Assembly (NCBI GenBank): GCA_004431415.1
Contig: QPMI01000652.1
Location: 19,959-83,958 of the forward strand
Source of the DNA: Cyanophora paradoxa CCMP329
Lineage: Eukaryota > Plantae > Glaucophyta
Direction: 5' to 3'
Length of the DNA: 64,000 bases
The position numbers and the translations under genes were made by a program. Positions 1 through 50,917 of this stretch are shown here, one piece after another (positions within the stretch are counted from its first letter, which is position 1; the number at the start of each line of letters is the position of its first letter). Under the pieces are notes generated by a model. It saw only the letters and a list, made by a program, of their open reading frames with translations, did no database searches and was not told where the DNA came from.

Positions 1-3000
1 CGCTCCGAGGCCGCCCGCCTCTACGACGCCGAGGACCTGCGCCAGTGGGAGCTCAGGCGCGCCCGCGCCCGCGCCCGCTTCCCGGGCGACTGGAAGCGGG
101 CCTCGCGGTCGGCCGGCACGCGCGCCGTGCCCGGCATGGTCGACAAGAGGCGGTCCTCGTGGCGCGGCGCCGACGCCCTCGCGGCCGTCGTGAAGCCCTG
201 GATGGAGCGCAAGCTCGGGCCCGCGCTCACCGGCGCCCTGCTCGAGGCGGGGGCCGTGGACGTGAGCACGTGGAACCCGAACTGCGGGATGCGCGAGGAC
301 ACGCACTACCACGGCTGGACGCTGCGCTACCCGGTGGCGATCGCCGACCGGACCGCCCTCGTCGATCCCGCCCGCGGCGACGCCGTCGACCTCTGCACGG
401 CGCGGGCCGACCCCGCCATCGTCGCCTGGAACCGCGACTTCTACGCCTGGCTCCGCTCCGCCCTCGCCGAGGCCCTCTTCCTCGACCTCCCGGCCCTCCC
501 GCGCCCCGCCGGCGCCGGCGCCGACCTCGCCCGCCGGGCCGCCCCCAAGCGGAGGGCAGAGGGCGCCGGCGAAGAGGGCGGTCGGCCGCGCGGCCGCGGG
601 CCCAAGCGCCCCCGCCGCGGCGCGCCGGGCGCGACCGACCCGGCCGCCGCCGCCGCGGCGGCCGCGGTCGATCCGAGCGGGCCCGAGGTGCCGCCGGACC
701 GCCTCCGCCTCGCCCGCGCCGTCTACCCCGCCGAGAGCGGCCGGGAGTGGGAGCGCCAGGGCGGCGAGGTCGAGGCCTACGTCTCGCGCCCCGCCGGCGG
801 GCCCTGCCTCCACGGGCGCGTCCACAGCAGCCAGAACACGCGCCTCGCCGTCGCCCCGTTTGGGGCGTGGGGCGTGCTGGCGGGCTCCGCCCACTGCTTC
901 AGCCTCGCGTGCGCCGAGCGGCCGCTGCGGGGCGCCCTCGCCTTTGCCGAGGGGCTCCCCGCGCCGCCGCCGCCCGAGGCCGCCGAGGCCCTCGGCCGCT
1001 GGCTCCCGCTCCTCTCCGAGGCGGCCAACGCCGCGATCGCCGCCGCCCGCGCCGCCCGCGAGCTCCCGCCCCTCGTGCTCCCGGACGCGGCGGCGGCGCC
1101 GTACCCGGCCCGCGCCGACCTGGGCACCGACACCGTCGAGTACCGCGTCAAGGCCCCCTGCGCCCTCTGCGGCGACCGCCGCGGCCTCGTGCGCGTCGAC
1201 GCCCTCGAGGGGACGGCCCGCGCCCACGCCTGCGACGCCTGCGAGGAGGCCAAGGCGGCGGAGGCGGCGGCCGCCGCCGGCGCCGCCGGCTCGGGCCCGG
1301 GCCCGGGCCCAAAGGCGGCGCCCGAGGTCCGCCTGGGGCGCGCCTGGACCTCGTCGATCTCGGCCGTGCAGCGGGCCGTGCACCGCGCCACCGTCGGCGC
1401 CGCCGTCGCCGCCGGCCTCCTCCCCGCGTCGACGGGCCTGCTGGGGGCGACGGAGCCGCGGGCGACCCAGCCGCCCATGTCGGCGGCGCGCCAGAAGTTC
1501 GTGGCGGGGCTGGCGGCGCACCTTGAGGAGCGGCTGGCGGCCCCCGCCGGCTCCCCCGACGGGCCGACCCCCCTGGAGGTGGCGCCCGAGCAGGCGGCCC
1601 TCTGGGCCCGCGTCCCGCTCCCGAGCCTCGGGAGGCCGCTGGCGCCGCCGGCGGGGCGGCCCGACCTGGAGGCGGCGTGGCTGGGGATCGACGACGACGC
1701 CGGGGGCGAGGGGCCGAACCGGCGCTACGTCGACGGGGCGCGCATCTCCCGCGAGCTCGAGGGCCCCGAGGGGCAGGCGCGCACCCTCTTCCTGCGGGGG
1801 GGCATGGGGGACGGCAAGACGCGCGCCTGCGTCTCGATCTCCCGCGCGATCGTGGCCGACCCGGCCCGCTTCGGCGTCCGCTTCGCCGAGGGGCAGCGCT
1901 CCATCCTCTACCTCGTCGCGGGGCGGCTGCACGCGCCCGAGATTCAGCGGGACCCCGAGTGGGCGACGGTGGCGCGGTGGGTCTCGTACCGCGACGTGCG
2001 GGACGGGGCGCCCGACGCCGCCGCGCTCCTCAGCACCGTCGAGTCGGTCCGGCGCTTCGACGGGGTCTTTCCCGTCGTGATCCTCGACGAGGGGGCCAAG
2101 GCGATCGTGACGGCCGTCCTCTCGGAGACGCTGGCGCCGGAGGCGCGCCAGAACCAGGCCCTGGCGCGCCTGGGGCGCCTCCTGTGCGAGGCCTCCATCG
2201 TCCTCGTCTCCGACGCCGACCTCTGCCAGCACGACGTCGACTACTACCTCGCCCTGCGCCACCCGGCGCCGGCCGCGCCCGGCGCCGCCCGCGTCGTCTC
2301 CTACACCCTGCGCCCCGCCCCGCGGGGCCCCGCCGCGCGCCGCGAGGCGCTCGCGTACCCCCTGGGGATGGCGGGGGACATCGTGACGGCGCTCCTCCTC
2401 GGCGGCCGCCGCGTCGCCGTCGCCAGCTCGGACCGCCGCACCCTCTTCCGCACGATGGGCGCCGTCCGCGGCCACCCGGGCCTGCGCGGCGGCGGCGAGC
2501 GCGACCTCTACGTCTACGCCGACGCCCGCGCCGAGGAGAGGGCGCGGGCGCTGGACAAGGGACACGTCTGCCGCGAGGTGCGGCTCTTTGCGTACAACTA
2601 CGCCATCCACCAGGGGGCCGACTACACGGACCCCGAGCACCCGTACGACGTCCTCGTCATCGCCGAGTCGGGCCGCACGGGGAGCGTCGTGCAGCTCTGG
2701 CAGCTCGCCGGCCGCGTCCGCTGCATCCGCAGCGACCGCGTCATCCTCTGCGTCGGCGACGGCGGCGGCGGTCAGGAGGAGGACGAGAAGGCGGCCGAGG
2801 AGGAAGGGCGCGGGGGCGAGGGCGGCGACCCCGGGGAGACGGACCCGGAGGCGATCCTGGCGGCGCGGGAGCGGGCCCTGGAGGAGACCTGGGGCCGCCG
2901 CGGGCTCGCCGGCGACCTCGCCTCGCACGAAATGCGGGCGGCGCTGCGCGTGCAGGCGCACAAGCTGGCGGTGCTGCGGGCCTCGCGGGCCGACCCGCTG

Positions 3001-4837
3001 GTGGCCGTCCACATGCGCATGCTCGCCGCCGGCGCCCGCGGCGTCTTCCTCCCGGGCGGCGCGCAGCCCGCGTGGGACGAGGCGCTGCAGGCCGAGGCCA
3101 AGTGGGCCGCGGAGCGGGCCCTCGAGATCGAGATCGTCCTCCCGCACGCCGCGGCGCCGCCCCTCGCGCCGGGGCGCGAGGAGCGCGTGCAAGAGGCCAT
3201 GCACGGCCTCGGGGGCGACGTGGACGACGCCTCCGGCGGCGTCGCCGACGCGGAGCGGCGCGGGTACCGCCTGGGACGCGTCGCCGCCGACTACCGCCTG
3301 CGGGAGGAGGAGGTCGGGACCCCCGAGCTCCGCCTCGCCCTGCGGGCCCGGGACGCGCACCACGCGGCGCTGCGCGGCTACGGGGCCGCCTTTCTGGCGC
3401 ACATGGAGACGGTGGCGCACGTGCGGGGCCAGGACGGCGGGCGCAACATCCTCCCCGACGCCCCCGACGAGGCCCACTCGCGCCGCAGCGCCGCCCTCCT
3501 CCTCCTCGCCGCCGGCTGCGAGCCGCCCGTGACCCCGTCGGCCATCCTCTCGCCCCTCCCGGACCCCGACGCGGCGGCGGCGCGGCGGGCCGGCGAGGCG
3601 GCGCGCGCGGGGTGCCTCTTTGCAGCGCACCGGCGGGCGCCGCTCGTCGAGGCGGCCGAGCTGCTCGCGCTGGAGCCGGCGGCGCGGCCGGCCGACCGCC
3701 TCGCCGCCCTCGCCGCCGCCGCCGGCGCCGGCAAGGCGGAGCGCGGGGACCTCGAGCGCCTCGCCGTCCGCCTCGCCGCGGGGCTCGTGGCCCACGCCGC
3801 CGCCGCCCTGGGGGCCCGCGTGCGCGCGTTCAAGACGCCGGCGGTGCGGGCGAGGGCGGGGCCCGGCGGGGGGCGGACCACGATGCGCAGCCGCGACGAG
3901 CGCGTCTACGCCGAGGCGCGCATCGCCTGCGGGGCCCGCTGGGCGTCCAAGGTGGAGCTCGCGCCCAGCGACGCCTGCTGGGACGACTCGGAGGCGGCGG
4001 CGGCCGCCGGCGGGGCCGACCCCGCGCCCCTCTGGGCGGCGTACGGCGAGGGGTACTCGCCCGAGGGCGGGCACCGCTGGGGCCGCGCCCAGGCCCGCGA
4101 GGCGGCCGACCTCGCCAACCTGTGCGCCCTCGTCGCCCTCTCCTGCCGCCTCGCGTGGGGGGACCGCCCGGAGCGGACGGGGATCCTCCGGCTCCACCCC
4201 GAGGCGTACCTGGGGAGCGGGCGCGCCGCCTGCTGGCCGCCGCGGCCGCCGCGGGGGGCGCCGCCCCGGCCGAGGGGCCGAGGCCGTCGAGGGGCTCGCC
4301 GGGGCCGTCGCGGGGCTCGGGCCGGCCGAGCTCGCCGCCGTCGTGCGCGGCGGGTTCGCCGCCGACGCCCGCCTCGACGCCCTCGCCGCCCGCCTCGCCT
4401 CCGAGGCGCGCGAGGCGCAAGAGGCGAGGGCTCTGCGCGACGCGGCCGACGGGAGGCGGGCCGCCGGCGGGGCGCCGCCGGCGACGGGCGACCCGCGCGT
4501 CTCGGCCGAGGCCGTCGCCTGGTTCCTCCGCCGCCTGCACGAGTCCCGCTCGGACCCGGAGCGCTGCGTGCCGCACCCGCGCTCGCCGGCGCACCTGGTC
4601 TTTTTCCCCGAGCGGATCTTTGGCGCCGACGAGCGCCTCCCGGGGCCCAACGGCGTCGCGGTGCAGCGGGCGGGGCGGGCCTCGGGGCGCGACCTCTGCG
4701 TCCGCTGGGTCGACGAGAACAAGGCGCCCGCCCTCGCGATGCGCCCGGAGCGCATCGGGCCGCGCGGCGGGCAGCACCGCGGCCTCGGCGTGCCCCTCGC
4801 CCTCTTTGCCGAGATGGGGGTCGGCGGGCAGCAGTAG
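1..4837 (+). CDS. PrimPol/AEP primase-polymerase + Zn-finger + UL9/origin-binding-protein-like SF2 helicase (5' partial; apparent frameshift near 4250)
   Basis: Frame +1 is open from base 1. AEP-like motifs: KRRSSWR, and VDVSTWNPNCGMR (cf. PrimPol vD.svY..n..lR). PrimPol/UL52-type Zn finger: PCLHGRVHSSQN...HCFSLAC. Helicase motifs: Walker A LRGGMGDGKT, STVESVRRF, Walker B VVILDEG, motif III LVSDADL, motif V AIHQGADY, motif VI QLAGRVR. After ~4250 the sensible sequence continues in the frame of ORF 3620..4837 (AEAVEGLAGAV...EMGVGGQQ*). Confidence 0.85.
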
Positions 4838-5089
4838 GCCCCGGCCCGAAGAGCGCGGGGGGGTAGGCGAGCGAGCTTGTGGGATGCGTGTTACAAGAAA
4901 TTGAACCGGGCCGCGCGCCCTCGCGGCCGAGGGGCGGATCGAGACGAGGGGGGGGGGGGGGATGGAGATAGGGGGGAGGGGGGGGGAGGGAAAGAGGGGG
5001 GGGAGGGGGGCAGGGGGACGAAAGGGGTGGAAAGAGAGAGGAAGGATAGGCTTGGGGAGCGGGGGCGGCGGGGGGTACGGAAGGGGGCC

Positions 5090-6930
5090 GGGCCTCGCCC
5101 CTCGAAGCTCGCCTGGTCGATTCCGGCAACGGCGCCTGTACCCCTGGGAGGGCCCATGGGCCCTGCCGTGAGCTTGGGCGAGCGGCGGGGGGGCGGGGCG
5201 GGGCGGGGGGTACGGTCGGACCGAGCCTCGCCCCTGATGGCCCGCCTGGGCGATTCCGGCTACGGCGCCTGTACCCCTGGGCGGGCCCAGGGGCTCGTCG
5301 GTGAGGCGGGGCGAGCGGCGGCCGCGGGGAGCGGGCAGAGTGCGGCGTACGGGCGGACCAAGCCTCGCCCCTGATGGCCCGCCTGGTCGATTCCGGCTAC
5401 GGTGCCTGTACCCCTGGGAGGGCCCGTGAGCTCTTCGGTGAGGCGGGGCGAGCGGCGGCCGCGGGAGCGGAGAGAGTGGGGGGTAACGGACGGACCGAGC
5501 CTCGCCCCCTGGTAGCCCGCCTGGTCGATTCCGGCTACGGCGCCTGTACCCCTGGGCGGGCCCGTGAGCTCTTCGGCGAGACGGGGCGAGCGGCGGTCGC
5601 GGGGAGCGGGCAGAGTGGGGGGTACGGACGGACCGAGCCTCGCCCCTGATGGCCCGCCTGGTCGATTCCGGCTACGGCGCCTGTACCCCTGGGCAGGACC
5701 GTTGGCTCTTTGGTGAGACGGGGCGAGCGGTGGCCGCGGGGAGCGGGCAGAGTGGGGGGTACGGACGGACCGAGCCTCGCCCCTGATAGCCCGCCTGGTC
5801 GATTCCGGCTACGGCGCCTGTACCCCTGGGCGGGCCCGTGAGCTCTTCGGTGAGACGGGGCGAGCGGCGGTCGCGGGGAGCGGGCAGAGTGGGGGGTACC
5901 GACGGACCGAGCCTCGCCCCTGATAGCCCGCCTGGTCGATTCCGGCTACGGCGCCTGTACCCCTGGGCGGGCCCGTGAGCTCTTCGGTGAGACGGAGCGA
6001 GCGGCGGGGAGCGGAGGGAGTAGGGGGTACGGGCGGACCGAGCCTCGCCCCCTGATGGCCCGCCTGGTCGATTCCGGCTACGGCGCCTGTACCCCTGGGC
6101 GGGCCCGTGAGCTCTTCGGCGAGACGAGGCGAGCGGCGGGGAGCGGGCAGAGTGGGGGGTACGGACGGACCGAGCCTCGCCTCTGATAGCCCGCCTGGTC
6201 GATTCCGGCTACGGCGCCTGTACCCCTGGGCAGGACCGTTAGCTCTTCGGTGAGACGGGGCGAGCGGCGACCGCGGGGAGCGGGCAGAGTGGGGGGTAAC
6301 GGACGGACCGAGCCTCGCCCCTGATAGCCCGCCTGGTCGATTCCGGCTACGGCGCCTGTACCCCTGAGCGGGCCCGGGGGCTCGGCGGTGAGACGGGGCG
6401 AGCGGCGACCGCGGGGAGCGGGCAGAGTGGGGGGTACCGACGGACCGAGCCTCGCCCCTGATAGCCCGCCTGGTCGATTCCGGCTACGGCGCCTGTACCC
6501 CTGGGCGGGCCCGTGAGCTCTTCGGTGAGACGAGGCGAGCGGCGGGGAGCGGGCAGAGTGCGGCGTACGGACGGACCGAGCCTCGCCCCTGATAGCCCGC
6601 CTGGTCGATTCCGGCTACGGCGCCTGTACCCCTGGGCGGGCCCGGGGGCTCGGCGGTGAGACGGGGCGAGCGGCGGTCGCGGGGAGCGGGCAGAGTGGGG
6701 GGTACCGACGGACCGAGCCTCGCCCCTGATAGCCCGCCTGGTCGATTCCGGCTACGGCGCCTGTACCCCTGGGCGGGCCCGTGAGCTCTTCGGTGAGACG
6801 AGGCGAGCGGCGGGGAGCGGGCAGAGTGCGGCGTACGGACGGACCGAGCCTCGCCCCTGATAGCCCGCCTGGTCGATTCCGGCTACGGCGCCTGTACCCC
6901 TGGGCGGGCCCGTGAGCTCTTCGGTGAGAC
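5090..6930 (+). repeat. Array 1, type-A half: ~14 tandem units of ~131-138 bp, core CCTGGTCGATTCCGGCTACGGCGCCTGTACCCC
   Basis: Cores read near 5112 (degenerate), 5245, 5383, 5521, 5658, 5795, 5932, 6063, 6194, 6332, 6469, 6601, 6738 and 6868. Inter-core sequences are homologous to each other. Confidence 0.95.
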
Positions 6931-6989
6931 CCTCAAGAGAAGAGGCAGTGAGGGCGAGCGAGGGCGGGGGCGCACGAGGGGGTGCGAGA

Positions 6990-8425
6990 GGCCTAGGGGG
7001 TACACACGCCGTAGCCGGAATCAACCAGGCCGCCCCTACTGCGAGCCAGATGCTGCCGGCCGCACGGGGGGAAGAGTGAGCGAGGGCGGGGGGGCAAGGG
7101 AGGGGCGGGAGGCTCAATGGGGGGTACACACGCCGTAGCCGGAATCGACCAGGCCGCCCCTACTGCGAGCCAGATGCTGCCGGCCGCACGGGGGGCAGGG
7201 TGAGCGAGGGCGGGGGGGCAAGGGAGGGGCGGGAGGCTCAGAGGGGGGTACACACGCCGTAGCCGGAATCGACCAGGCCGCCCCTACTGCGAGCCAGATG
7301 CTGCCGGCCGCACGGGGGGCAGGGTGAGCGAGGGCGGGGGGGCGAGGGAGGGGCGGGAGGCTCAGTGGGGGGGTACACACGCCGTAGCCGGAATCGACCA
7401 GGCCGCCCCCTACTGCGAGCCAGATGCTGCCGGCCGCACGGGGGGCAGGGTGAGCGAGGGCGGGGGGGCGAGGGAGGGGCGGGAGGCTCAGTGGGGGGGT
7501 ACACACGCCGTAGCCGGAATCGACCAGGCCGCCCCTACTGGGAGCCAGCTGCTGCCGGCCGCACGGGGGGCAGGGTGAGCGAGGGCGGGGGGGCGAGGGA
7601 GGGGCGGGAGGCTCAGTGGGGGGGTACACACGCCGTAGCCGGAATCGACCAGGCCGCCCCTACTGCGAGCCAGCTGCTGCCGGCCGCACGGGGGGCAGGG
7701 TGAGCGAGGGCGGGGGGGCGGGGGAGGGGCGGGAGGCTCAGTGGGGGGTACACACGCCGTAGCCGGAATCGACCAGGCCGCCCCTTCTGCGAGCCAGATG
7801 CTGCCGGCCGCACGGGGGGCAGGGTGAGCGAGGGCGGGGGGGCGAGGGAGGGGCGGGAGGCTCAGAGGGGGGTACACACGCCGTAGCCGGAATCGACCAG
7901 GCCGCCCCTACTGCGAGCCAGATGCTGCCGGCCGCACGGGGGGCAGGGTGAGCGAGGGCGGGGGGGCGAGGGAGGGGCGGGAGGCTCAGTGGGGGGGTAC
8001 ACACGCCGTAGCCGGAATCGACCAGGCCGCCCCTACTGCGAGCCAGCTGCTGCCGGCCGCACGGGGGGCAGAGTGAGCGAGGGCGGGGGGGCGGGGGAGG
8101 GGCGGGAGGCTCAGTGGGGGGTACACACGCCGTAGCCGGAATCGACCAGGCCGCCCCCTACTGGGAGCCAGCTGCTGCCGGCCGCACGGGGGGCAGGGTG
8201 AGCGAGGGCGGGGGGGCGAGGGAGGGGCGGGAGGCTCAGTGGGGGGGTACACACGCCGTAGCCGGAATCGACCAGGCCGCCCCTACTGCGAGCCAGCTGC
8301 TGCCGGCCGCACGGGGGCAGGGTGAGCGAGGGCGGGGGGTCGGGGGAGGGGCGGGAGGCTCAGTGGGGGGTACACACGCCGTAGCCGGAATCGACCAGGC
8401 CGCCCCCTACTGCGAGCCAGCTGCT
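6990..8425 (-). repeat. Array 1, type-B half: ~12 tandem units of ~124 bp with the core inverted (GGGGTACACACGCCGTAGCCGGAATCGACCAGG on +)
   Basis: The reverse complement of the core recurs every ~124 bp and faces the type-A half. The spacer family differs from type A. Confidence 0.95.
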
Positions 8426-9387
8426 GCGAGAGGGTACGCGCCGCCGAGCGAGCGAGGGGGATGTCGGCGGCAGGGCCCGGGCGGGGGCGGGGGGAAAAGG
8501 AGGGGCGGGGGGTACACAAGCCGCACCAGGGACCGGCCGCGACGCCTAGGCCTGCGCTGCAGCCGAGATGCGCCTCGCGGCTTCGCAACGCGGGGCGGCC
8601 CGCGCCCGGGGCGTGCGACGACGCCGGGAGACGGCGGCCGCCGAAAAGAGGCGCGCCGGCCGAGCCTCGCTCGACGCGCCCTGCGGGGGGGCGAGGCTGG
8701 CGAACCGGGCTCGAGGCGCGGCGGCCCGGCGGCGCGGCAGGAGAGCGAGGCGCCCGGACCGCGCCAGCGCGGGCGCGGGCGCGCTCGCCGCAGCTGCTCG
8801 CCCCCGCACACGCCAGCGCGCTGCGCTCCCGGCGCCGCCCCGCCGCCCTGCGCCCCGGAGGATGAGCGCCCCGCTCGCGCTGGCGCGGAACGAGCCCTCT
8901 GCTTGCGCGGGCGGCCCGGCTGGCCGGCGGATGCGTGTGGCGGTGCGGCGCGGCCGCGGCGCGGCGGCGGTCCATAGCTAGGCGGAGCGGGGCGCCGGCG
9001 GGCGTGGGGCGCCGGCTCCCGGTGCCCTCGGCTAAGACGACCGGCGCCGGCATCCCGCCGGCCGGCCCTCGCGGGCGCGAGCCGCGCGCATCGCACCTGT
9101 TCGAGGCGCGCTCCGCGCCGGGGCGTCTCCTGAACCGCCCGGCCGGTCCTCGGAACGCGCAGCTGGTCCTGGAGCTACATGGACGGTGCAGAGGCGTCGC
9201 GCTGGCCGCGGCGCCGCGCGGCGCCGGCCGCGGACGAGAACTACATGCCAAAGGTCGCCGGGACGGCAGGACCGGCTCCGCGAGCGATCTACTGTACTCG
9301 GGAGCTCCAGAGCTCACGGGGGCGTCGCGGGGCCCGCGGCCGCCGGCGCCCCGCATGCAGCGTTTTTTCGGGGCCAGTTTGCAACGT

Positions 9388-9415
9388 TTCGATCGTGCGA
9401 CATCGCACGATCGAA
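9388..9415. other. Perfect 13-2-13 bp dyad TTCGATCGTGCGA-CA-TCGCACGATCGAA within a conserved ~70-bp element
   Basis: The arms are exact reverse complements. An inverted near-identical copy with flanks is at 52670-52697 and a degenerate copy at 24256-24277. Confidence 0.9.
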
Positions 9416-10639
9416 TTTCAACAGCACGCCACGCCGCGTGAGGGCCCTCCGGGGCCTTCCCTAGCCCTTGTGGAGCCCTAGAGTCACGTCGGCGCACGCG
9501 CGCCCCGCTCGCGCGCGCCGCAGCTGCAGTGCGCGTGCATCCGTACGCGCGCGCGACGTCGACCGAGTCGCGCATCGAAAGCCGTTTCAACCTGGCTCTG
9601 CCAACGAACCCAGAGTTTACGGGCCTTGTGACGTGCGCATCTGGATGCCTTGCGTACCGGCAGCCTCACCTGTTGACCCGCACGCGCGGGCGCGGCCTAG
9701 GCCTAGGTGGCCGAACCATATGCATATGCATGTGCATGCCGATCGACGATGGCCGGGACTCGGGAGGAGCGCCCACCTCGTGTGCCGCCGCTCGGGGTCC
9801 TGATCCATCACACTCTTAATATAAGCTTATAGCTAGCGAAAGTTTAAAGCTGCAGCTCGAGCTCGCAAGCATATGCATCCCGACCGGCCTACAGCGCTAG
9901 CTATAGCTCTAGATCTAGAGATCTCCACGTACTGTGACATGTACATGTACGTGTACATGTGCCGGCCGCGGGGCATGCGCATATGCATGCGCTGCGCATG
10001 CCGTCGCACACGCAGGTACCGCCCCCCTGCTCTCCGCACATGTACGTATACGTATACAGGCGCCGGCATACGTATACGTATACGCCTCGCGTGCGCTCTA
10101 GATCTAGATCCGATCCGCGCGCGCATCTCGAGTCTTCGACTAGTACTTGCAGTAAACGCCCCGCGCGCGCGGCGGCCCGCACCCTGCCGGGCCGGCGGCC
10201 ACTTGCGCCTACGAGACTCGGAACGGTACGCGCCCGCCGGCCTTGGCCTTGGCTCCGGATCCTCCCGAATAATAATCCCGATATCGATCCGGCAGCAGGC
10301 CCACGCGCACCCCGCCGCCGCCGCGGCCGCCCGCAGCGGCGCGCCGGGTCGGCGGCGGCCCGCGGGGCCAGGGGCGCCGTGCTTTGAAAGTCTGCGTGCG
10401 GTTTGCGATCGGTCCGGCCGCGGGGCCTCGGAGCCACGCGTGCCACGCGCCCCGGCCCCCCCGGCCCTCGTTCAGTTTGTTTTCTCCGGAATCCTGGAAT
10501 CGTTTTTTCTCCAGGCCGGCCGGGATTCCTGGACAGCGAGGGGCCGATAAAAGGGAGCGCCCCGCCCCGTTTTCGGCACTCCCCACCGCCCGTGCACGTG
10601 CCGCCCCCCGCCGCCCCCCACCAGTCGCCGAGCATCGAG

Positions 10640-10993
10640 ATGCACATGCTGCCCGTCAAGGCTCTCCGTACCCCCGCCCCCCCTTGCGCCGGCGCCCGGC
10701 GCCCCGCCCCGCGCCCGCCCGCCATCGCCGTCGCCCTCGACGCCCTGGAGCTCTTTCTGCGAAACGCGCCCCTACCGCCCCCGCCTCCCCCGCCGGCGCC
10801 GGCGCCGGCCACCGCCACGCTCAAGCCCGGGCCCACGGCCGGGCGTCCCGCCGGCGCCGCCCCCGGCCGCCCGCGGCTTTTCAGAAAGGAGATCGTGAAG
10901 AAGCGCCGCGTGTGCTGCAGCTTGTGCGGATGCCCGGTGCGCGCCCGGTCCCCCCCCCCCCCCCCCCCCCCCCCCCCGTTTCTCCAGAAATGA
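10640..10993 (+). CDS. Small Pro-rich hypothetical protein with C-terminal basic/CxxC motif
   Basis: ATG at 10640 follows CGGGATTCC (10521) and GATAAAA (~10546). Contains RKEIVKKRRVCCSLCGC. The 3' end runs through a poly-C tract and is uncertain. Confidence 0.4.
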   Translation: MHMLPVKALRTPAPPCAGARRPAPRPPAIAVALDALELFLRNAPLPPPPPPPAPAPATATLKPGPTAGRPAGAAPGRPRLFRKEIVKKRRVCCSLCGCPVRARSPPPPPPPPPFLQK

Positions 10994-11488
10994 AACAAGC
11001 ATCGCTGACCGCAACGGCTCGCGCAGGGTCGCAACAAGCGGTCCCACGAGCGAGGCCGGAAGCCTCACGCTTGCTTCTATAATTTCTATGTACAGCCAGC
11101 GGCCGGACGGATCGTCCCACGTAGCATGAATAGTATATTTTCCAAATCTGTATAAGCGGGTGATGAATTTGAATGGTTGTGTCGATTTGAAACGCAACGC
11201 AACGACGAGGCTATCGGAGGTAGCGAGTATGCATATGAATGCCGCGGTCATCGGCTCCTCCTGGGAGCTCGAGCCGTGATCACGATTAGCGTCCGGGATT
11301 CCCGTCGGTCGTTTTTGAGAGGGGGCCGGGCCGCGGCCGGGAATCCCGCGCCGCGCCAGCCCATGGCCATGCCCACAAAATGGGAGCGGGCCCGAGGTGC
11401 AGCGTCATTTGCGTTTCGCGAAAACTCGGGAGGGGATCGATCTTGCAATTGGATGTCGACCGCACGTTGCTTCACCCCGCTCGTGCCC

Positions 11489-11884
11489 ATGGACGAGGGC
11501 TACGCATACGAGGATGAACTTCAAATGGTAAACGAGCTGGAGGAGCGCGAGGGCGAGGCACACGCGCTGGCCTTCATCCAGGGCAATTTCGGGCCCGATG
11601 GCTACACGTGTACGCTGCTCGGAGATCTAGACGACAAATTCAAACCCGACGACCTGCGTGCACGTGGCTCGGACGTCGACGTCGACGTGGACGCCGTTTG
11701 GAGGGCGAAATTCGAAGCGGGCGAGGGGTGCGCCGGCAAAGGCGCGCTCCGGACCTCGTGGAGCGCACGGACGTGCGATCGCGAGTGGGATATCGATTCG
11801 GATCCGCCCCTCCCGCTTTGTGGCACGCCTGCAGCTATCGTGGCTATGCCCGAGTGCTATGCAGCCTCGTGGTGGCAGTACTAG
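11489..11884 (+). CDS. Small acidic hypothetical protein
   Basis: Non-shadow composition (MDEGYAYEDELQMVNELEE...YAASWWQY). Preceded by two CGGGAWTCCCG motifs (11294, 11338). The start could be an upstream ATG near 11362. Confidence 0.55.
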   Translation: MDEGYAYEDELQMVNELEEREGEAHALAFIQGNFGPDGYTCTLLGDLDDKFKPDDLRARGSDVDVDVDAVWRAKFEAGEGCAGKGALRTSWSARTCDREWDIDSDPPLPLCGTPAAIVAMPECYAASWWQY

Positions 11885-12404
11885 CGTTCACGTTGATGAA
11901 CAGAGATTCATTTTGTGCACGTGACTCATGACATTGAACGCAATCAAAGATCCAGAAAATCCGAGCGACAGGGGGGTTGGCCGCCGTTGGCCGCCGGAGG
12001 GTTTCGGGTTTGAAAATCGCATTCGGAGCTCGAATCAGATCGCGAAGAGGAGCGCTTGCGCTCAACTCACGTCGCAGCCCCCGCAGTGGACGGCGCACGC
12101 GCCAGTGGTGCCACCGGGCCGGCGTAGCACGTGGATATATCAGTGGGAGTTCGACACGCGGTGGTCATATGCATCATCACGTGCGCGCGAGGCCCCGGGC
12201 CGGTGCACGTGCCCACACGCTCGAGATCCGGATCGATATCGCGATCGAGCTCAAGGTCGTGGGTACCGTAGTGCGTAAACGTTGACGGCGCCGCACCGGT
12301 ACCTGTACATGTTGGGATTCCCGCCTGGGATTCCCGATTGATGGGCGCACAAAACTGCGCTGGGCGGTGGGCGGCTCCTCACTCTAGCTCCTGCCACCCG
12401 CAGC

Positions 12405-12644
12405 ATGGACAACCGGAACGCCGGCCTCCCCTTCCACACCCTGATCACCACGACAGGCGACAAGATGTACGCCGTCGCCCCCCCGGGGGCGGCCGCGTCG
12501 ATGGAGCGACTTTGCCAGGATATCCTCTCCGACCCATTCATCGCCCGTGGCCTGCGGGCGCTCAACCTGCGCGTCGAATGCAAGCTGACCGTCTCGCCCT
12601 CGACGGGCGAGATCATCCTCGTCGCCACCGCCAAGCCGCTCTAA
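12405..12644 (+). CDS. 79-aa hypothetical protein
   Basis: Codon usage is GC3-rich and typical of coding sequence. Two GGGATTCCCG motifs lie upstream (12314, 12327). Confidence 0.55.
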   Translation: MDNRNAGLPFHTLITTTGDKMYAVAPPGAAASMERLCQDILSDPFIARGLRALNLRVECKLTVSPSTGEIILVATAKPL

Positions 12645-13186
12645 TTACGCAGATCTAGATCCTATAGCTAGATATGCATGCATATCTAGATCTCTAGATC
12701 TCTGTCCAGCGAGGCATATGCCTAGGTATGCAGGTACATGTTATAATCATAATTACAGTACAACGTTTCTGTTTGGCCCCGGCAACGATATATCGATAAC
12801 TGCAGGCGCTAGCTATAGCGCGTGTCACATATGCATGCACCGTTGATGATTCGATGATTCGATCTGAAGCTTATAATTACACACAAATTAAAACCTGAAA
12901 GCCGGGAACATGCATGCGTAAAAACCTCTGATCGTTGCCCGCGCAGAGGCCTCCTAGGACCGTCTACGTACCCGGCGCGGGGGCGCAGGGGTCAACGTTA
13001 GGACCGTCTACGTACCCGGCCCGGGGGCGCAGGGGTCCACGTTGGGAATCCCGGCGTCGACGCGGGGGTCGCGATCGGCCATGGCCATGGGAATCCCGGC
13101 GTCGGCAGACCGATAAAAGGGGTGGTCCATCGCACCATCCGTGCAGACTCCATTTTCGCAGAAAAGGGGCGTCAATCAGAGAAGCG

Positions 13187-13528
13187 ATGCCGCCGCGCAT
13201 GCGTACGCCCATCGCCCTCGCGGGCCCCGCGGCCGGCCCGCAGCTGAGCGAGATGCACGGCGCCGGCGCGACGGCGACGCGGGCTGAAGACGTAGAGGCG
13301 GTCTTTCTCGCAGGCGTCGACTACGAGACGCTCGAAGATCTGGTCGCAGTCGAGGCGTCGGTGACGTGGGAGCACATCGTGGAGCTTGGAGTCAGATTCA
13401 TCGAGGAAGACGACCGAGCCAACGCCGGCAACGTTGACGTGAACGGTGCCGACGTCGACGGCGACGGCGGGCTCGACGGTGATCATGAGGACGGGTCCGA
13501 AACGGACGCCATGTCGACGTCGCGTTAG
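13187..13528 (+). CDS. Acidic hypothetical protein (113 aa)
   Basis: Two GGGAATCCCG motifs (13044, 13089) and GATAAAA (13112) lie upstream. The C-terminus is D/E-rich. Confidence 0.55.
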   Translation: MPPRMRTPIALAGPAAGPQLSEMHGAGATATRAEDVEAVFLAGVDYETLEDLVAVEASVTWEHIVELGVRFIEEDDRANAGNVDVNGADVDGDGGLDGDHEDGSETDAMSTSR

Positions 13529-14041
13529 CTACATGTATACGTACAGAATGATAGAAACAACGTTTTAACAATAGCAATCGCGCGCGCGCGTGCACGTGGT
13601 ATGTATATATCGATTCCTTCAGTCATCGATATCGCGCTCGTGATATCGATGCGTCGACGTGCGCGTCGAAACCTGCCAGGCCTAGGCTGGCCTGGGTGCA
13701 TCGGTCGAGTCGGGCACGGGAAGGGGCGTCTATTCGATTTGCACGTGTGCGTGCGCGTATACGTAGACCTAGGCGCCGCAATAGCTTCGTGTGATGCAGG
13801 GTTTCACTTGGAGAAAATGCACGCGCCGCGCACGCGTACGGTAGATAATTGCGTTCGCGTACACCGGCGTCTCATGATCACTGGCCATGGAATACATGGA
13901 CATTGGAATTTGCGATAGTGGCAGGGCGTCACGTTTCGGTTCATTTCATGGTACACAAGTACTGTGATTAGAGCAGATCAAGCCACGAGCGATATCAACT
14001 TCAATGGAAACCACGGCTAACTATAAAGACACGCGCGAGGT

Positions 14042-14520: not shown

Positions 14521-14682
14521 GGGCACACACGCCGTTGCCGGAATCGACCAGGCCGCCCCCTAGGCCTACCGCGCGCGAGCCGGTCGCGGTTGCTGCGAGC
14601 CGTGCGGGAGGACGGGCGAGCGAGGGCGGGCAGTGGAAAGGGGGCGAGAGAGGGGTACACGGGCCGTAGCCGGAATCGACCA
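14521..14682 (-). repeat. Two isolated, degenerate type-B core units
   Basis: GGGCACACACGCCGTTGCCGGAATCGACCAGG at 14521 and GGGGTACACGGGCCGTAGCCGGAATCGACCA at 14652, ~131 bp apart. Confidence 0.85.
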
Positions 14683-14763
14683 CGTACACGGCTACCAGCA
14701 ACGCGACGCGTCGACTTTGCATTTTTCATCCGCAGTTCGCCGCATTCATGTTCATATTGCATC

Positions 14764-17166: not shown

Positions 17167-17206
17167 ATGGCCCCTGCCGCACCCGCCCCGGCTTTTGCCG
17201 GCCCCA

Positions 17207-17239
<33 letters not shown>

Positions 17240-18138
17240 TCGATTCAAGCCTCGAGCTCGACGACCTCGACCTGGACATCGATCTCGACGATATCGACGG
17301 AGAGGTCGGCGGGCTCGAGCTCGCGCCCGAGGCGCAACGGGGCTGTACCCCCGCCGCCCCCGATCGCGAGCCCGAGCCAGGGGCGCCGCCGGCCGGCGGT
17401 GCGGGGGCACGGGGCGCCGGGCCCGCCCCCGTCCCGGGCGCTGGCGCCTTTGCCGTCGCCGCCCCCACCGGCGCCCAGCGCCCGAAACCAAAGCGGCCCC
17501 CCTCGCCGACGAGCCTCGCCCTCGAGGCGCGGCCGCGGCTGCTGGAGGAGCTCCGCTCCGCCTGCGAGCGGCTGAACCTGCCCCCCGCCGCCGCGACCGA
17601 GGCGCTGCGGCAGCTCAAGCTCCGGCCCGAACTCTTCAACGGGCGGCCCTACTCGCTCCTGGTCCTCGCGGCCCTCTACTCTGCGTGCACCTCGCTGCAC
17701 ATCCCGCGCCGGATCTGCGAGTTCGAGTCGGCCTGCCCCGAGGGCACGCGGCGCCGCGCCCTCGTCCGGTGCTACAGGGAGCTGCGCCGCAGGGTCCCCG
17801 GGGCGCCCGCCCCCGGGACCGACGGGGGCGTGGGGCCCGCCCACTACGTGCCCGGGCTGGCGGCCCGCCTCGGCTGCACCCGCGCCCAGACGGCCGACGC
17901 CCTCGCGCTGGCCGAGCGGTGGCACAGGGAGAGCAGGGCCCCCGAGCTCGGGATCCCGCAGATCCGCGCCGCCACCGTCGCCGCTGCGGCGGTGCTCCTC
18001 AGCCGCGGGCCGGGGGCCCCGCGGCTCAGCCCGCGGCACGCGGCCGCCGCCTGGGGCCTCGCCCCCACCCCGCTGTACACGGCGCTCCCCGTGGTCCGCG
18101 AGTTTCAGCGGCGGGCCTCGCGCCCGGCTGCGGGCTAA
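17167..18138 (+). CDS. TFIIB-like protein (two cyclin-fold repeats, acidic N-terminus, no Zn ribbon)
   Basis: Repeat 1: ELRSACERLNLP...GRPYSLLVLAALYSAC...IPRRICEF...LVRCYREL. Repeat 2: PAHYVPGLAARLG...ATVAAAAVLL. TATAAA near 17104. Confidence 0.8.
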
Positions 18139-18830: not shown

Positions 18831-20552
18831 CTACTGAGCGCGGCCGCGGGTCGCGCGGCCGCTCCTGCGGCCCGAGGTCGACGCCTCCTCGCGCTCGGCG
18901 CGCTTGGCTTCGTTGCGGGCGCGGTGGAGCTCCTTCTCCTCCAGCTTCTTCTGCCGGCTGCGCTGCGCCGCCTCGGCCATCTCGGCCGCCGTCGGCGCCC
19001 GCACGACGACGGGCTCGACGGGAGCGGCGCGGTCGCTCGGGCCGGCGAGGGCGACCCCGCGGCGGCCCAGGGCGGCCCGCAGCCCCTCGGCGAGGTCCCG
19101 CCGCGCCCCGAGCGCCCGCAGCTCCTCTGGGGCCGCCGCCGCGCACATCGCCTCCAGGTACTCGCCCCCGACGCCGCGCCCGGCCGCCTGAAGGATGTGC
19201 TGGGCGGTGAAGCGGACGCCGACCGCGGCGGCCGCCTCGGGGATGCGGGGGTCCGTGCACGTGGAGCGGCATGCGACCCGCCTCGCCAGGGCGGCCCGTG
19301 GTAGGGCGCGGGCGGCCGCGTCGCCCATGGCCAGCTGCAGGCGGGCAAGGAGCGCGTCCTCCCCCTCCGGAAGGTCCTCTGGCACCGCCCGCCGCACCGC
19401 CGCCTCCTTAAGCTTCTTGCCGTCGACGGCGCCCGCGGCCGCCCGCCGCCTCACTCCTGCCAGGGGCGCGTTCCGTTCGGCCACGCGCTGACGCAGGGCC
19501 CTGATGCAGCTCGCGTGCGCGGGGTGAGGGCCGAAAAAGGCCTCCTTGGGCAGCGTGGGCCCGCCCTCAACAAACTCGCCGACGGGCGTCTCCCCCTCCC
19601 CGCGGGGAATGGCCACCGCGGCGAAGCGAATGTGTCCCATATCTGCATCCACCCCCGAGCAGATGTTGTAGACGTGGATGCTCACGTGAAGCGGGCGCCC
19701 CCCGTTCCACGCCGTCAGCTCGGCGGCAAGGCTCGTTTCGATCCAGCCGACGACCTCCTCGCTCTTCCGATCCGTCGCCTCGCCGTCGAGCGAGTCCCCC
19801 CCGCGGAGCGCCTCCATCCCGACGTCCAACGCCACCACGGCCCAGATCGAGAGCGGAGAGCCCGACCGCGATCCCGCGCCGAACAACGAGACGGAGCGAC
19901 CGCGGACGCGATCGCCGGCCCCAAAGGCGAAAAGCCCGAAGACGGTTACCTCGCCGCCGATCGCGAGCTGGGGGGCGGCCGGCGGCGGGGTGCGCGCAAG
20001 TGCAGGCGGCGCCGGCGCCACCCCTGCAGAGGCCGGCGCCGGCGCGGCAGGCAGCACCCGACCCTCAACGAGCCAGCCGCGGCTGACGTGCCCCGGCATC
20101 TCCAGGTGATGGATGCGGACGATGATTTTGGGGCCCGGCCGAGGAATGTAATTGACGACAAGGAGCATCGACCCGTCGGCATCGCGCGCCGTCGATCCGG
20201 AGGGGCTCAGGTACATGTCCCCCACGGCCTCGTAGCCGCCGCCGGGGACGAGCTGGGCCCCCATCTTCTCGACCACCTCCACCCGCAGACGCGTCCACTC
20301 CTCCTGGGCGCCAGCCGAGAGGCTCGTCCCCTTGATGACGGACGCAAAGTGCGACCGCACCATCGGCACGAGGACGGCAAAGCGCGCCGCCCCGCCCGAG
20401 CCATCGGCGACGGCGCCGGCCGCGCAGATCGTCCCGATGGCGCGGCTCGAGCCGACCTTGATCCACGCCTCTGCCCGGCGGACTCCGAAGAGGGCGCGCG
20501 CGGCGGCCGACGACGCGTCGACGGCGGCAAAGTTGGCGGACTCGGTCGACAT
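18831..20552 (-). CDS. Hypothetical protein (~573 aa) with C-terminal coiled-coil/basic tail
   Basis: Long intronless ORF from MSTESANF with globular-looking composition. Motif copies (20687, 20704) and a reverse TATA near 20721 lie upstream. Confidence 0.7.
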   Translation of the reverse strand: MSTESANFAAVDASSAAARALFGVRRAEAWIKVGSSRAIGTICAAGAVADGSGGAARFAVLVPMVRSHFASVIKGTSLSAGAQEEWTRLRVEVVEKMGAQLVPGGGYEAVGDMYLSPSGSTARDADGSMLLVVNYIPRPGPKIIVRIHHLEMPGHVSRGWLVEGRVLPAAPAPASAGVAPAPPALARTPPPAAPQLAIGGEVTVFGLFAFGAGDRVRGRSVSLFGAGSRSGSPLSIWAVVALDVGMEALRGGDSLDGEATDRKSEEVVGWIETSLAAELTAWNGGRPLHVSIHVYNICSGVDADMGHIRFAAVAIPRGEGETPVGEFVEGGPTLPKEAFFGPHPAHASCIRALRQRVAERNAPLAGVRRRAAAGAVDGKKLKEAAVRRAVPEDLPEGEDALLARLQLAMGDAAARALPRAALARRVACRSTCTDPRIPEAAAAVGVRFTAQHILQAAGRGVGGEYLEAMCAAAAPEELRALGARRDLAEGLRAALGRRGVALAGPSDRAAPVEPVVVRAPTAAEMAEAAQRSRQKKLEEKELHRARNEAKRAEREEASTSGRRSGRATRGRAQ

Positions 20553-21139
20553 GGCCCCTCTGCAAAAAGGGTTTACGGGTTCCGGCTGTAGGTGCTGCAG
20601 CTGTGGCTGCCGTCGTTGTCGACGTGTTTCGACCGCGCAAATGCGCCGAGCTCGGCCGCCTCTCTCCCTTTTGTCGACGCGGCAGACGGGAATCCCGGGC
20701 GCCGAGAATCCCGAGCGCCATTTTATATAATTATTCGAGCGCGCGCGCCGCCCTCCGGTATCGTCTACCCGTTGCGCCCGCGCGCCCATCGTGATCATCT
20801 ACCCTTGGTACCCTGTCCGGGATGCCCCAGCGCCCCCGCCTCTTCCTCTTCCCCCCGCAAGGCTTTGCATTGACACGGCGCAATTCGAATCCCGAATTCA
20901 TGTCTGATTTCTTTGCGCAATAGATCACTGATGCATATTTCATCGGCGAGAGCGATTTCGTCCGCGCCCGTCGCCGGCCGCGTCCGCTGCGGAGCGGCTG
21001 CGGCGGCCCCCGCTGCCGCCCCGGGCCTGCCGGCGCCCGGCCCCTCGTCCGCCGTCTTGCTTTGCCGGCGGCCGGGGCTGGGAGGCGGGGGAGCCGCTCG
21101 GCACCGTGCGGGCAGTTGCCGAGGCCTGCCGCAGCGCGG

Positions 21140-22395
21140 GCTCTCGGTGAGACGAGACGCGGGGCGCGGGGCGCAGGTGGGGGGAGGGGTGGGCGGGGGT
21201 ACGGACGGACCGGGACCCGCCCCTGATAGCCCGCCTGGTCGATTCCGGCTACGGCGCCTGTACCCCCTTCGACGGTCGCGGGGCCGAGTCCTGCCGCAGC
21301 GCGGGCTCTCTGTGAGACGAGACGCGGGGCGCGGGGCGCAGGTCGGGAGAGGGGAGGGCGGGGGTACGGACGGACCGGGCCCCGCCCCTGATAGCCCTCC
21401 TGGTCGATTCCGGCTACGGCGCCTGTACCCCTTCAACGGCCGCGGGGCCGAGTCCTGCGGGCGCGCTCTGTGAGACGAGACGCGGGGGCGCGGGGCGCAG
21501 GCGGGGGGAGGGGTAGGGCGGGGGTAAGGACGGACCGGGGCCTGTCCCTGATAGCCCGCCTGGTAGATTCCGGCTACGGCGCCTGTACCCCCTTCGACGG
21601 CCGCGGGGCCGAGTCCTGCCGGCGCGCTCTGTGAGACGAGACGCGGGGCGCGGGGCGCAGGTCGGGAGAGGGGAGGGCGGGGGTACGGACGGACCGGGCC
21701 CCGTCCCTGATAGCCCTCCTGGTCGATTCCGGCTACGGCGCCTGTACCCCCTTCGACGGCCGCGGGGCCGAGTCCTGCCGGCGCGCTCTGTGAGACGAGA
21801 CGCGGGGCGCGGGGCGCAGGTCGGGAGAGGGGAGGGCGGGGGTACGGACGGACCGGGCCCCGCCCCTGATAGCCCTCCTGGTCGATTCCGGCTACGGCGC
21901 CTGTACCCCCTTCGACGGCCGCGGGGCCGAGTCCTGCCGGCGCGCTCTGTGAGACGAGACGCGGGGGCGCGGGGCGCAGACGGGGGGAGGCGGAGGGGGG
22001 AAGCGAGGGGTACGGACGGACCGGGCCCGTCCCTGATAGCCCGCCTGGTCGATTCCGGCTACGGCGCCTGTACCCCTTCCACGGCCGCGGGGCCGAGTCC
22101 TGCGGGCTCTCTGTGAGACGAGACGCGGGGCGCGGGGTGCAGGTTGGGGGATGGAGAGGGCGGGGGGTACGGACGGGCCGGGCCCCGTCGCTGATAGCCC
22201 TCCTGGTCGATTCCGGCTACGGCGCCTGTACCCCCGTCGACGGCCGCGGGGCCGAGTCCTGCGGGCTCTCTGTGAGACGAGACTCGGGGCGCGGGGTGCA
22301 GGTTGGGGGATGGAGAGGGCGGGGGTACGGACGGACCGGGCCCCGCCCCTGATAGCCCTCCTGGTCGATTCCGGCTACGGCGCCTGTACCCCCGT
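21140..22395 (+). repeat. Array 2, type-A half: 8 units of ~160 bp
   Basis: Same core near 21234, 21400, 21560, 21720, 21879, 22045, 22203 and 22361. Confidence 0.95.
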
Positions 22396-22444
22396 CGACG
22401 GCCGCGGGGGCCGAGTCCTGCGTGCCTGCGTGCCGCGGGCGCCG

Positions 22445-23385
22445 AGTGAGCGAGGGCGGGGGCGCGGCGAGGGGGCGAGAGGCTCAGGGGGGTACACACG
22501 CCGTAGCCGGAATCGACCAGGCCGCCCCTACCACGAGCCTGCTGCTGCGGGCCGCACGGGGGAAAGGATGAGCGAGGGCGGGGCGCGGCGAGGGGGCGAG
22601 AGGCTCAGGGGGGTACACACGCCGTAGCCGGAATCGACCAGGCCGCCCCTACCACGAGCCTGCTGCTGCGGGCCGCACGGGGGAAAGGATGAGCGAGGGC
22701 GGGGCGCGGCGAGGGGGCGAGAGTCTCGGGGGGGTACGCACGCCGTTGCCGGAATCGACCAGGCCGCCCCTCCTCTGAGCCTGCTGCTGCGGGCCGCACG
22801 GGGCGCTGGGTGGGCGGGGGCGGGGCGCGGCAAGGGGGGCGAGAGGCCCAGGGGGGTACACACGCCGTTGCCGGAATCGACCAGGCCGCCCCTACCGCGA
22901 GCCTGCTGCGGCGGGCCGTGCGGGCCGCCGAGTGAGCGAGGGCGGGGGCGCTCGAAGGGGGCGAGAGGCCTAAGGGGTACACACACCGTAGCCGGAATCG
23001 ACCAGGCCGCCCCTACTGCGAGCCTGCTGCCGCGGGCCGTACGGGTCGATGGGTGAGCGAGGGCGGGGCGCGGCAGGGGGGCGAGAGGCTCGGGGGGGTA
23101 CGCACGCCGTAGCCGGAATCGACCAGGCCGCGTCTACCACGAGCCTGCTGCTGCGGGCCGCACGGGGGAAAGGATGAGCGAGGGCGGGGCGCGACGAGGG
23201 GGCGAGGGGCTCGGGGGGGGGGTACACACGCCGTAGCCGGAATCGACCAGGCCGCCCCTACTGCGAGCCTGCTGCCGCGGGCCGTACGGGTCGATGGGTG
23301 AGCGAGGGCGGGGCGCGGCAGGGGGGCGAGAGGCTCGGGGGGGTACGCACGCCGTAGCCGGAATCGACCAGGCCGCCCCTACTCT
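22445..23385 (-). repeat. Array 2, type-B half: 8 units of ~121 bp
   Basis: Inverted core near 22505, 22626, 22750, 22870, 22990, 23112, 23235 and 23357. Confidence 0.95.
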
Positions 23386-28162: not shown

Positions 28163-29516
28163 GCCCCTCGGCCTCCCTCCCGCCGCTGCCTCCTTTCGCC
28201 CCGTACCCCCGCCCCCGCCCCACACCCGGCACATCCCCTCTCCGACCGCTTTTCCCCGCACGTTTGCCCTCGATCCCCCACCCTCTCTTCCTGCCCCCCC
28301 TCCCCCTCCCCACCCCTCCCCTCCCCCTCCCGCCCCCTCCCCCCCCCCTCTTCTCGCCCCTCCCCTCGCCCTCCCCGTCCTACTCGCGGCCGCCCCCTCT
28401 CTCTCCGGCCCCTCCGCTTTCTCTGCCACTCTTTCACCCTTTTCCGAAAAGATTCAGCGCCCTATTCCTGCATTTCTTCTTTCCGATATGTATCATTTCC
28501 TTCCCTGTTTGGCGTGTTCGGGTTTCCTTTCGGAATCGAAAAGCTTGTCATTCAGAGGCGGTTCTGTGCTCGCTTGCGAGCAATGTTGTCATTGTGAGGA
28601 AAATGAAATGTGCACAATCGCTCTCGCAGCGGCCTTGAGCCGAGCGATCACACACATCTTTGAGGGCTCTAGATCTATGCTCTCTCAGAGTCTCTCAAAT
28701 GTTTGTGGTCTCTATTTCGCGCTGGCTACACATACGGGTGCCCCCTCGGCAGGTCCATGACAGAGCTCGCAGAGCAAGTCGCGTCCATATGCATTTCATT
28801 CTGTCTTTAACGTTGAGCTCGTAAAAACCGTGCCTTGATGGGCTCGAACATGCAACGTCAAGCGGTGCCCACCTTGCGCGCGGACAAGCCGCTGGTTGGG
28901 CATGCGCCACGGGAGGCATCTTGCAGCGCCGCAGCTTGAATTACTGTATACGTGTGTATGCATGTGCCATTTGCGCGCAAGTAATGCTCACAGCTAGCAG
29001 GAAGGATAGCTTCGGTATAGTTACAAAAACCAGAAACAAGAAGCGAGTTCACTCGGGAGTAGAGCCGGTTTCGTTGTGCGTATAGATGATCATGATGCAA
29101 GGGCGTGCAAGCAGAACTCACGGCCGCCCGCCGAGTCGCGATCGAGCACCGCGCAACGCGCGATCCGACGACGCCAGCTATGTAGAGAGCTACATCGAGC
29201 TCTATTCTCTGGCTACTCGACGACGACGACGTGCACGAGTCGAAGGAAGATGAGCGGCACCCACATTGTTATCTGAGGCCACTGTCCGCCGGAGGGGGGA
29301 GGATACGGGAGGCTGTCTCGGTCCCAGACTCCGCGTATCCACCCGGCCCCATTGGAATTGGGTAGCGGATCCAAGCCGGCCACGCGCCTCAGCGTTGCGA
29401 GCTCCGGATCACCTCTCGTCAGGTTCGAGCTCTTCAGCAGTTGGTTCAGGCGTTCCCTGCTCATTTCTCCCAATCAGAAATAATCGGGTTGTCGGGGCTT
29501 CGCGGGGCATTGCGAA

Positions 29517-34951: not shown

Positions 34952-34991
34952 AAAGAAATGGTGTCCGGCATTAGAACATAGTCTCGAGCTT

Positions 34992-50830: not shown

Positions 50831-50917
50831 CTCTTTGAGAGACGGGGGCGAGCGGTCGGAGGGTGCGGAAGCGCGCGAAGGGGTGGGTCGAGAGGAAAGG
50901 CAAACGACAGCGTTAGC

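Follow-up and report, generated by a model that had tools for sequence, protein, structure and literature searches.

In a stretch of 64,000 nucleotides from the glaucophyte Cyanophora paradoxa (the window), a 28-bp dyad at 9388-9415 marks the centre of a conserved block that, judged from sequence, occurs in at least five contexts, with a 63-bp core as their common part. As this core is joined to several flanks and identity peaks on the dyad, the block is probably a selected cis site rather than a neutral duplication, and that it has some function, by whatever mechanism, appears quite likely to us. The mechanism we tentatively put forward, rating it somewhat below an even chance, is recombination: the dyad block would be the core site at which the tyrosine recombinase encoded by the element acts. 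This reading is supported by the identity peak, the many flanks, an 11-6-11 layout, the encoded recombinase, and the permuted synteny of the unit.

The dyad and its copies within the window

The perfect dyad announced in a preliminary description of this DNA (d1, forward strand) is present, its letters at 9388-9415 being TTCGATCGTGCGA-CA-TCGCACGATCGAA. It is a 13-2-13 dyad that can alternatively be read as 11-6-11 with the centre GACATC. Taken singly, d1 is only a mild rarity; when its neighbourhood was shuffled locally, a perfect inverted repeat with arms of at least 13 appeared in 6 of 30 shuffles, and the window holds two further palindromes with perfect arms of at least 13, at 10043 and 46916. 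Short self-complementary words are dense in the intergenic stretches 9700-10150 and 45600-47350 (perfect palindromes 10043-10080 and 46916-46943), which calls for caution with single dyads there. Since d1 is modest by itself, it is the recurrence of the dyad that counts.

An inverted copy, d3 (52670-52697, reverse strand), has an identical centre and a single change, located in one arm (27/28). Self-comparison with the arrays masked aligned 9370-9502 with 52715-52583 as an inverted 133-bp duplicate (84%, E 6e-35), the block around d3 thus spanning 52583-52715 on the reverse strand. When the alignment is anchored on the dyad, identity is 61/63 across the core around d1 (9370-9432, forward; 56% GC, flanks 70-73%) and 51/70 across a decaying one-sided flank (9433-9502, forward), to which related sequence exists in further copies; outside, it is at background on both sides (22/70 and 28/98). 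This 51/70 flank is on the side facing away from arrays 1 and 4, and the other side is at background. The contrast between core and flank (Fisher p 1e-4) was equalled in 7/20000 permutations, making the identity peak at the dyad unlikely if divergence were even. The initial statement that the surroundings are otherwise poorly conserved therefore holds outside the block but not for the block itself, which d1 and d3 share beyond the dyad. The two copies are head-to-head and 43,282 bp apart, with identical centres, a geometry that bears out the suggestion that exchange between them would invert about 43 kb.

A third copy, d2 (24251-24278, forward strand), is degenerate and limited to the core, with the centre AACGTC and unrelated flanks. 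Its identity to the dyad is 21/28 overall and 20/22 across 24256-24277; among order-3 Markov nulls, 20/22 was reached by 0/300 and 21/28 by 3/300. Both mismatches of the 22-nt match sit in the central 6 bp. With 11-bp arms, inverted-arm identity is 11/11 for d1, 10/11 for d3, and 7/11 for d2.

The shape of the block invites another explanation, namely that it is a relic, left by an old internal duplication or by the end of a transposon, small or large (with terminal inverted repeats around 43.3 kb, or of MITE/Helitron-like type), whose copies gene conversion at the hairpin would keep similar. As in terminal repeats, identity ends sharply at one border and fades at the other; a single dyad of such size is not rare, and in polinton-like viruses (PLVs) that bear a tyrosine recombinase, terminal inverted repeats are present but target duplications are not (PMC12220804). 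We nevertheless regard a relic as unlikely: there is no target duplication at the block, similarity in every left flank runs beyond the apparent end, d2 retains the dyad free of any flank, and Pfam scans found neither capsid nor transposase between d1 and d3. Moreover, the genes on either side of d1 and of d3 show synteny with another copy of the unit (see below), and the recombinase and helicase genes lie outside the d1-d3 interval. A Helitron 3' end, which consists of a hairpin, 10 nt, and CTGG (here on the minus strand), was considered and rejected, as similarity continues past it. The long neutral segmental duplication that the preliminary description had named as its refutation is disfavoured as well, given a length of only 133 bp, the steep identity peak, and the at least five contexts. 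Purifying selection and short gene conversion fit the conservation of the block equally well.

Convergent tandem arrays near the dyads

Array 1 (5070-8427) consists of 14 A units of about 137 bp followed by 12 B units of about 124 bp, with a common core motif in opposite directions. Array 2 (21136-23383) has 8 A and 8 B units, array 3 (50382-52113) has 4 A and 10 B units, and array 4 (53653-55461, reverse strand) is made of 14 inverted A units, a sister sequence of array 3A. One core motif is found in all arrays, and in arrays 1-3 the A and B parts are oppositely oriented and converge on their junction, where the spacing is 141, 141, and 149 bp despite differing junction sequences. The array units fold no better than shuffles, and the core motif had 0 matches in viral contigs. 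Arrays 3A (50382-50868) and 4 are inverted sisters flanking array 3B and d3, and homologous recombination between them could flip a 2.8-kb segment. Two isolated core motifs at 14532-14684 (reverse strand) form a two-unit mini-array; no dyad is found near it.

Measured to the array ends given by TRF, d1 lies 961 bp past array 1 (end at 8427), d2 lies 873 bp past array 2, and d3 lies 956 bp from array 4, in agreement with the approximate values of 960, 870, and 960 bp first reported; the distance from d3 to array 3, put at about 620 bp, had to be corrected to 557 bp. From the dyad centre to the nearest array core motif, the distances are 1002 (array 1), 892 (array 2), 650 (array 3), and 1067 bp (array 4). 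As these vary, dyad-array spacing is not fixed, and the near-equality of 961 and 956 bp depends on the TRF array ends. The spacers between dyads and arrays have no detectable shared sequence on alignment. Each of the three dyads is found less than 1 kb from an array end, a zone that holds 13.7% of the positions outside arrays, although d1 and d3 are paralogous and the 3/3 does not amount to three independent cases.

This proximity would also suit a replication origin, or a site bound by the initiator, at which the primase/UL9-like helicase of the element acts. Copies of the block would then recur in the unit much as ori palindromes do in herpesviruses or hr regions in baculoviruses, and the arrays would serve as enhancers or in partition. 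The helicase features match Herpes_ori_bp clusters and there is a weak match to CyRepA1, a comparable UL9-primase fusion is known in ASFV F1055L (PMC10653895), the core is AT-richer than its flanks, and the d1 hairpin folds better than shuffles (z -3.75). However, dyad and arrays have no motif in common (their longest common word has 7 letters, compared with 7-8 in the null; arm identities reach 8/13 and 7/13, at null level), and the core, at 56% GC, has no AT-rich spacer. The hairpins of d3 and d2 fold no better than shuffles (z -1.2 and -1.4), GC skew in the flanks of the dyads is small, and the PF02399 match of the helicase is limited to the helicase part, with no DNA-binding domain. We see an origin as possible but not probable.

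A virus-like host unit

The window is part of a virus-like, multi-copy unit of more than 64 kb. At its left end lies a gene for a primase joined to a UL9-like SF2 helicase (model P0001; 1-4866, forward strand), which begins upstream of the window. In Atlas, the helicase is at 0.98 to a cluster with 53% PF02399 (Herpes_ori_bp); the direct Pfam match to PF02399 (E 0.33) covers profile positions 54-202 of 820, that is, the helicase part only, with the DNA-binding domain not covered. Weak profile matches were obtained to LigD_Prim-Pol (E 0.0098) and to the plasmid replication protein CyRepA1 (E 0.0011). ASFV F1055L, a UL9-primase fusion, has the same architecture (PMC10653895). No relatives of the helicase were found in viral contigs, and when its second half (2386-3621) was used as query against all representatives, the four matches were two paralogs, the distant relative P0018, and a weak match to the repeat protein P0019. 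P0018, a protein of 2182 aa in which primase and helicase are laid out in the same way (E 4e-12), suggests more lineages of the element.

Other genes include one for a TFIIB-like protein (17167-18138, forward; PRK00423.1, E 1.4e-7, under the curated cut-off), a 573-aa orphan that serves as a synteny marker (18831-20552, reverse; = tig00020509_g9749), the orphan gene T (48327-50140, forward), and an intron-containing gene for a histone H3-like protein (58700-59560, reverse, ends approximate; Pfam Histone E 2.4e-5). The tail of the H3-like protein is, we take it, closer to canonical than to centromeric H3 and seemingly altered around K9/S10. At the right end, cut by the window boundary, is a gene for an Ulp1-like plus tyrosine recombinase protein (model P0004; 60698-64000, forward). 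P0004 has frame-shifted stretches relative to its full paralog P0005, which also carries an SLX1-like GIY-YIG domain and shows the expected order of tyrosine recombinase catalytic residues. P0005 is an intact-looking enzyme. The recombinase part is at 0.97 in Atlas to Preplasmiviricota clusters and at 0.96 to a cluster with 17% PF00589. The domain was undetected in Pfam, PHROGs, NCBIfam, and PDB sequence searches, and tblastn against plasmids gave no match. Single-sequence folds were unusable (pLDDT 37 and 43), and fold searches with them returned no match.

Pfam scans of 56 and 146 proteins revealed no capsid, packaging ATPase, polymerase B, or transposase in the window, with the proviso that divergent capsids can escape such scans. 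Nor did they reveal a serine recombinase gene in the window, the rest of the unit lying outside it. Rfam, tRNA, and promoter/terminator scans gave no matches. The stretch 28500-47600 has lower GC (50-60%) and contains an AAA fragment at 33.3 kb, a weak PD-(D/E)XK match at 40.2-40.7 kb, and an ankyrin-like ORF at 44.3-45.6 kb; it is possibly cargo of the unit. A MITE-like insertion at 47636-48264 has terminal inverted repeats of 15 bp (87% complementary) and short repeats that cluster in its subterminal parts; 8-bp direct repeats (47628-47635 and 48265-48272) flank it, and it resembles hAT elements. At 26167-27061, within the gene at 25-28 kb, there is a local direct duplication of about 160-300 bp.

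A second copy with permuted gene order

A further copy of the unit, on tig00020509, has 95-99% identity in the best-aligned stretches. Its order is T (g9767), two models, the tyrosine recombinase (g9764), seven models, the helicase (g9756), g9753, TFIIB (g9750), g9749, four models, and a second T (g9744). In the window, the order is helicase, a g9753-like gene, TFIIB, a g9749-like gene, 28 kb, T, two genes, and the recombinase. On gene numbers alone, the two orders fit one cycle opened at different points, such as a circle, or a tandem integrant, of more than 64 kb would give; we therefore infer that the unit is circular or tandem. More relatives are found on tig00000540 and tig00000923. Exact look-up recovered 8 of 30 window proteins (7/10, 0/10, and 1/10), with 0 of the 12 queried from 29-46 kb among them, so that synteny is not directly supported in that interval.

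Giant endogenous viral elements (GEVEs) have been reported in C. paradoxa (PMC12344493); in one supplement file of that report, three contig names had no match. A term search of the main text of the C. paradoxa genome paper found no mention of viruses or tandem arrays (PMC6704402). The element is apparently undescribed, as no account of it was found in the literature searched, which covers supplements incompletely.

Further copies in sequencing runs and databases

Among 24 sequencing runs, 15, all from one organism, contain at least half of the words of 8400-14000. Contigs covering 8450-10850 in 4/4 runs include a paralog that differs from the window by 25 substitutions and 15 gap letters over 237 bp to the left of the dyad and by 27 substitutions and 12 gap letters over 271 bp to the right. 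In all four runs the paralog contigs end at the dyad on both sides, as would be expected for a shared core under 31-mer graph logic. No recombination product appears among these contigs, which cannot resolve recombination junctions across the 63 bp shared. At 9345-9475, runs X1 and X4 have at least four left-flank and at least five right-flank types, both window copies among them, counts that draw on the 19 of 25 records listed and, for the others, on loose ends and depth.

Contig ends and the same graph logic suggest that the arm change of d3 is probably common to 3/5 right-flank types, and that the paralog would differ within the 6-bp centre. In one paralog contig, 3-6 letters immediately left of 9404 are unaligned; together with the centre mismatches of d2, they hint weakly that the centre varies. 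In X1, window-type contigs (9157-9671) have 1.6-1.7 times the depth of paralog-type contigs, compared with a ratio of 0.8-1.2 in X3, X4, X9, and X11, which, depth not being copy number, is only a hint of copy-number variation between lines. The exact dyad had 0 matches in viral contigs. An 18-base part of it matched 24 loci in metagenome contigs, of which 0/24 had the full dyad or matching flanks, indicating that these matches are due to chance.

Two further readings bear on where contigs break. If the dyad were a transcription-factor site, promoter, or RNA boundary, the TFIIB-like gene of the element would be in keeping with it, as would the weak hint that contigs of 2/2 RNA-guessed runs start at 9404-9405; that these contigs leave the left half of the block uncovered is given no weight here. 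Yet contigs of DNA runs break at the same place, the RNA status of the runs is itself guessed, and one RNA-guessed contig has an adapter-like loose end at the dyad. With no Rfam match, about 1.2 kb between d1 and the next ORF, and d3 pointing into an array, we judge a transcriptional role very unlikely. Highly improbable is a role in telomere resolution, with the dyad as a hairpin end of a linear form, an idea to which the near-perfect palindrome and the encoded tyrosine-recombinase-like enzyme with its SLX1-like GIY-YIG domain lend themselves: among the records listed, no strand-switch joints occur at 9345-9475 in 4/4 runs, the dyad centre is asymmetric, and d3 is imperfect.

A candidate target for the encoded recombinase

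Were the dyad block a tyrosine recombinase core site, recombinase monomers would bind both 11-13 bp arms and strand exchange would proceed across the central 6 bp, with the CA asymmetry setting direction. Exchange between d1 and d3 would invert the 43.3 kb separating them, while sites in the same orientation, as in a dimer or tandem, would lead to resolution or excision of the unit. The 70 bp of one-sided flank may have an accessory role, and d2 may have decayed or be a site of target type. In this scheme, the arrays would form a separate protein-binding system, a partition or replication aid, and not oriP-type partners of the dyad.

Several features agree with such a site. The inverted arms of d1 are of the 11-13 bp found in tyrosine-recombinase core sites, with a recombinase encoded in the same element. 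The dif site has an 11-6-11 layout (PMC5357621), and PLV recombinases are described as using circular donors and leaving no target duplication (PMC12220804). Against a recombinase site, 11-6-11 can be read into any 28-bp dyad, the arms appear to vary (the d3 change), and both assembled copies are one isomer, the helicase adjoining g9753-type genes in 2/2. The two sites of the paralog may not recombine with each other if its centre differs. Typical recombinase spacers are also less symmetric than the near-symmetric centre of d1, GACATC, in which only the middle 2 bp are asymmetric, and 13-2-13 would suit a serine recombinase, or simply a homodimer, equally well. Serine invertase/resolvase sites have a 2-bp crossover between arms of 12-13 bp, a layout that d1 also has.

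The earlier idea that the dyad is a target of the element's tyrosine recombinase or resolvase remains plausible as to its setting, in that a tyrosine recombinase is encoded, d1 and d3 share one centre and face each other head-to-head, and conservation is highest at the dyad; activity is predicted only. To our knowledge, the target sites of tyrosine recombinases from eukaryotic viral elements have rarely been defined, and here d1 provides a concrete 28-bp candidate target and P0005 a candidate enzyme for one such recombinase.

Comparison with known systems

The analogy to EBV oriP drawn in the preliminary description stands in terms of layout, with a tandem array about 0.6-1 kb from a dyad (here 557-961 bp), but not in terms of sequence. 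In oriP, both FR and DS are made of EBNA1 sites (PMC3095595), whereas here array and dyad share no binding motif and nothing beyond chance. Units in the window are 120-160 bp compared with 30 bp in oriP, and the arrays are bipartite and convergent. Pfam scans found no EBNA1-like protein, with 7 gene models of the unit lying outside the window. As with HSV oriS, a UL9-like helicase is encoded; oriS-like origins have an AT-rich spacer between their binding boxes, while the dyad has a 2-bp centre in a core of 56% GC.

The likeness to dif (XerCD, 11-6-11) and FRT (13-8-13) lies in a 28-bp dyad readable as 11-6-11, with a small central asymmetry and a tyrosine recombinase nearby. In contrast to these sites, the centre in the window is almost palindromic, the conserved core extends to 63 bp plus a one-sided flank, and the putative enzyme of the site, which is PLV-like, also carries Ulp1-like and GIY-YIG domains. 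PLVs that encode a tyrosine recombinase and GEVEs are a further comparison, since the recombinase resembles Preplasmiviricota proteins and GEVEs are reported in C. paradoxa (PMC12344493). The unit differs from them in its size of more than 64 kb and in its UL9-like primase-helicase, TFIIB-like, and H3-like genes, with no capsid, packaging ATPase, or polymerase B found in the window. Unlike PLV terminal inverted repeats, d1 and d3 are bordered on the outside by genes syntenic in the second copy and not by unrelated host flanks.

The yeast 2-micron plasmid offers a further parallel, with two head-to-head recombinase-type sites in short inverted repeats, arrays, and a circle-compatible gene order. 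That plasmid amplifies via Flp recombination between head-to-head FRT sites and is regulated by SUMO enzymes including Ulp1 (PMC6594588), and its partition locus, STB, carries a histone H3 variant (PMC2064333). Among protists, Aurantiochytrium provides a precedent for a viral episome that is circular (PMC12606086). The unit is over ten times larger than 2-micron, has its own primase-helicase, and has no Rep1/Rep2 found; its recombinase is nearest to Preplasmiviricota/phage-integrase clusters in Atlas, with no Flp family in the Pfam scan. As the recombinase is not Flp-like and the circle only inferred, the element is not a member of the 2-micron family.

A 2-micron-like way of working is nonetheless suggested by the inverted site pair, the Ulp1-fused recombinase, the arrays, and the H3-like gene. 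In its boldest form, which we think distinctly improbable, the element would be a giant (>64 kb) nuclear glaucophyte episome, 2-micron-like but built from viral parts, in which a PLV-type recombinase flips inverted dyads to amplify and resolve the circle, the primase/UL9-like helicase replicates it, and convergent arrays together with the element-encoded H3 variant partition it. If true, this would represent a second, independent case of recombination-driven plasmid amplification in eukaryotic nuclei. In this element, convergent arrays occur together with genes for a recombinase, a UL9-like primase-helicase, and TFIIB-like and H3-like proteins, all within one permuted multi-copy unit.
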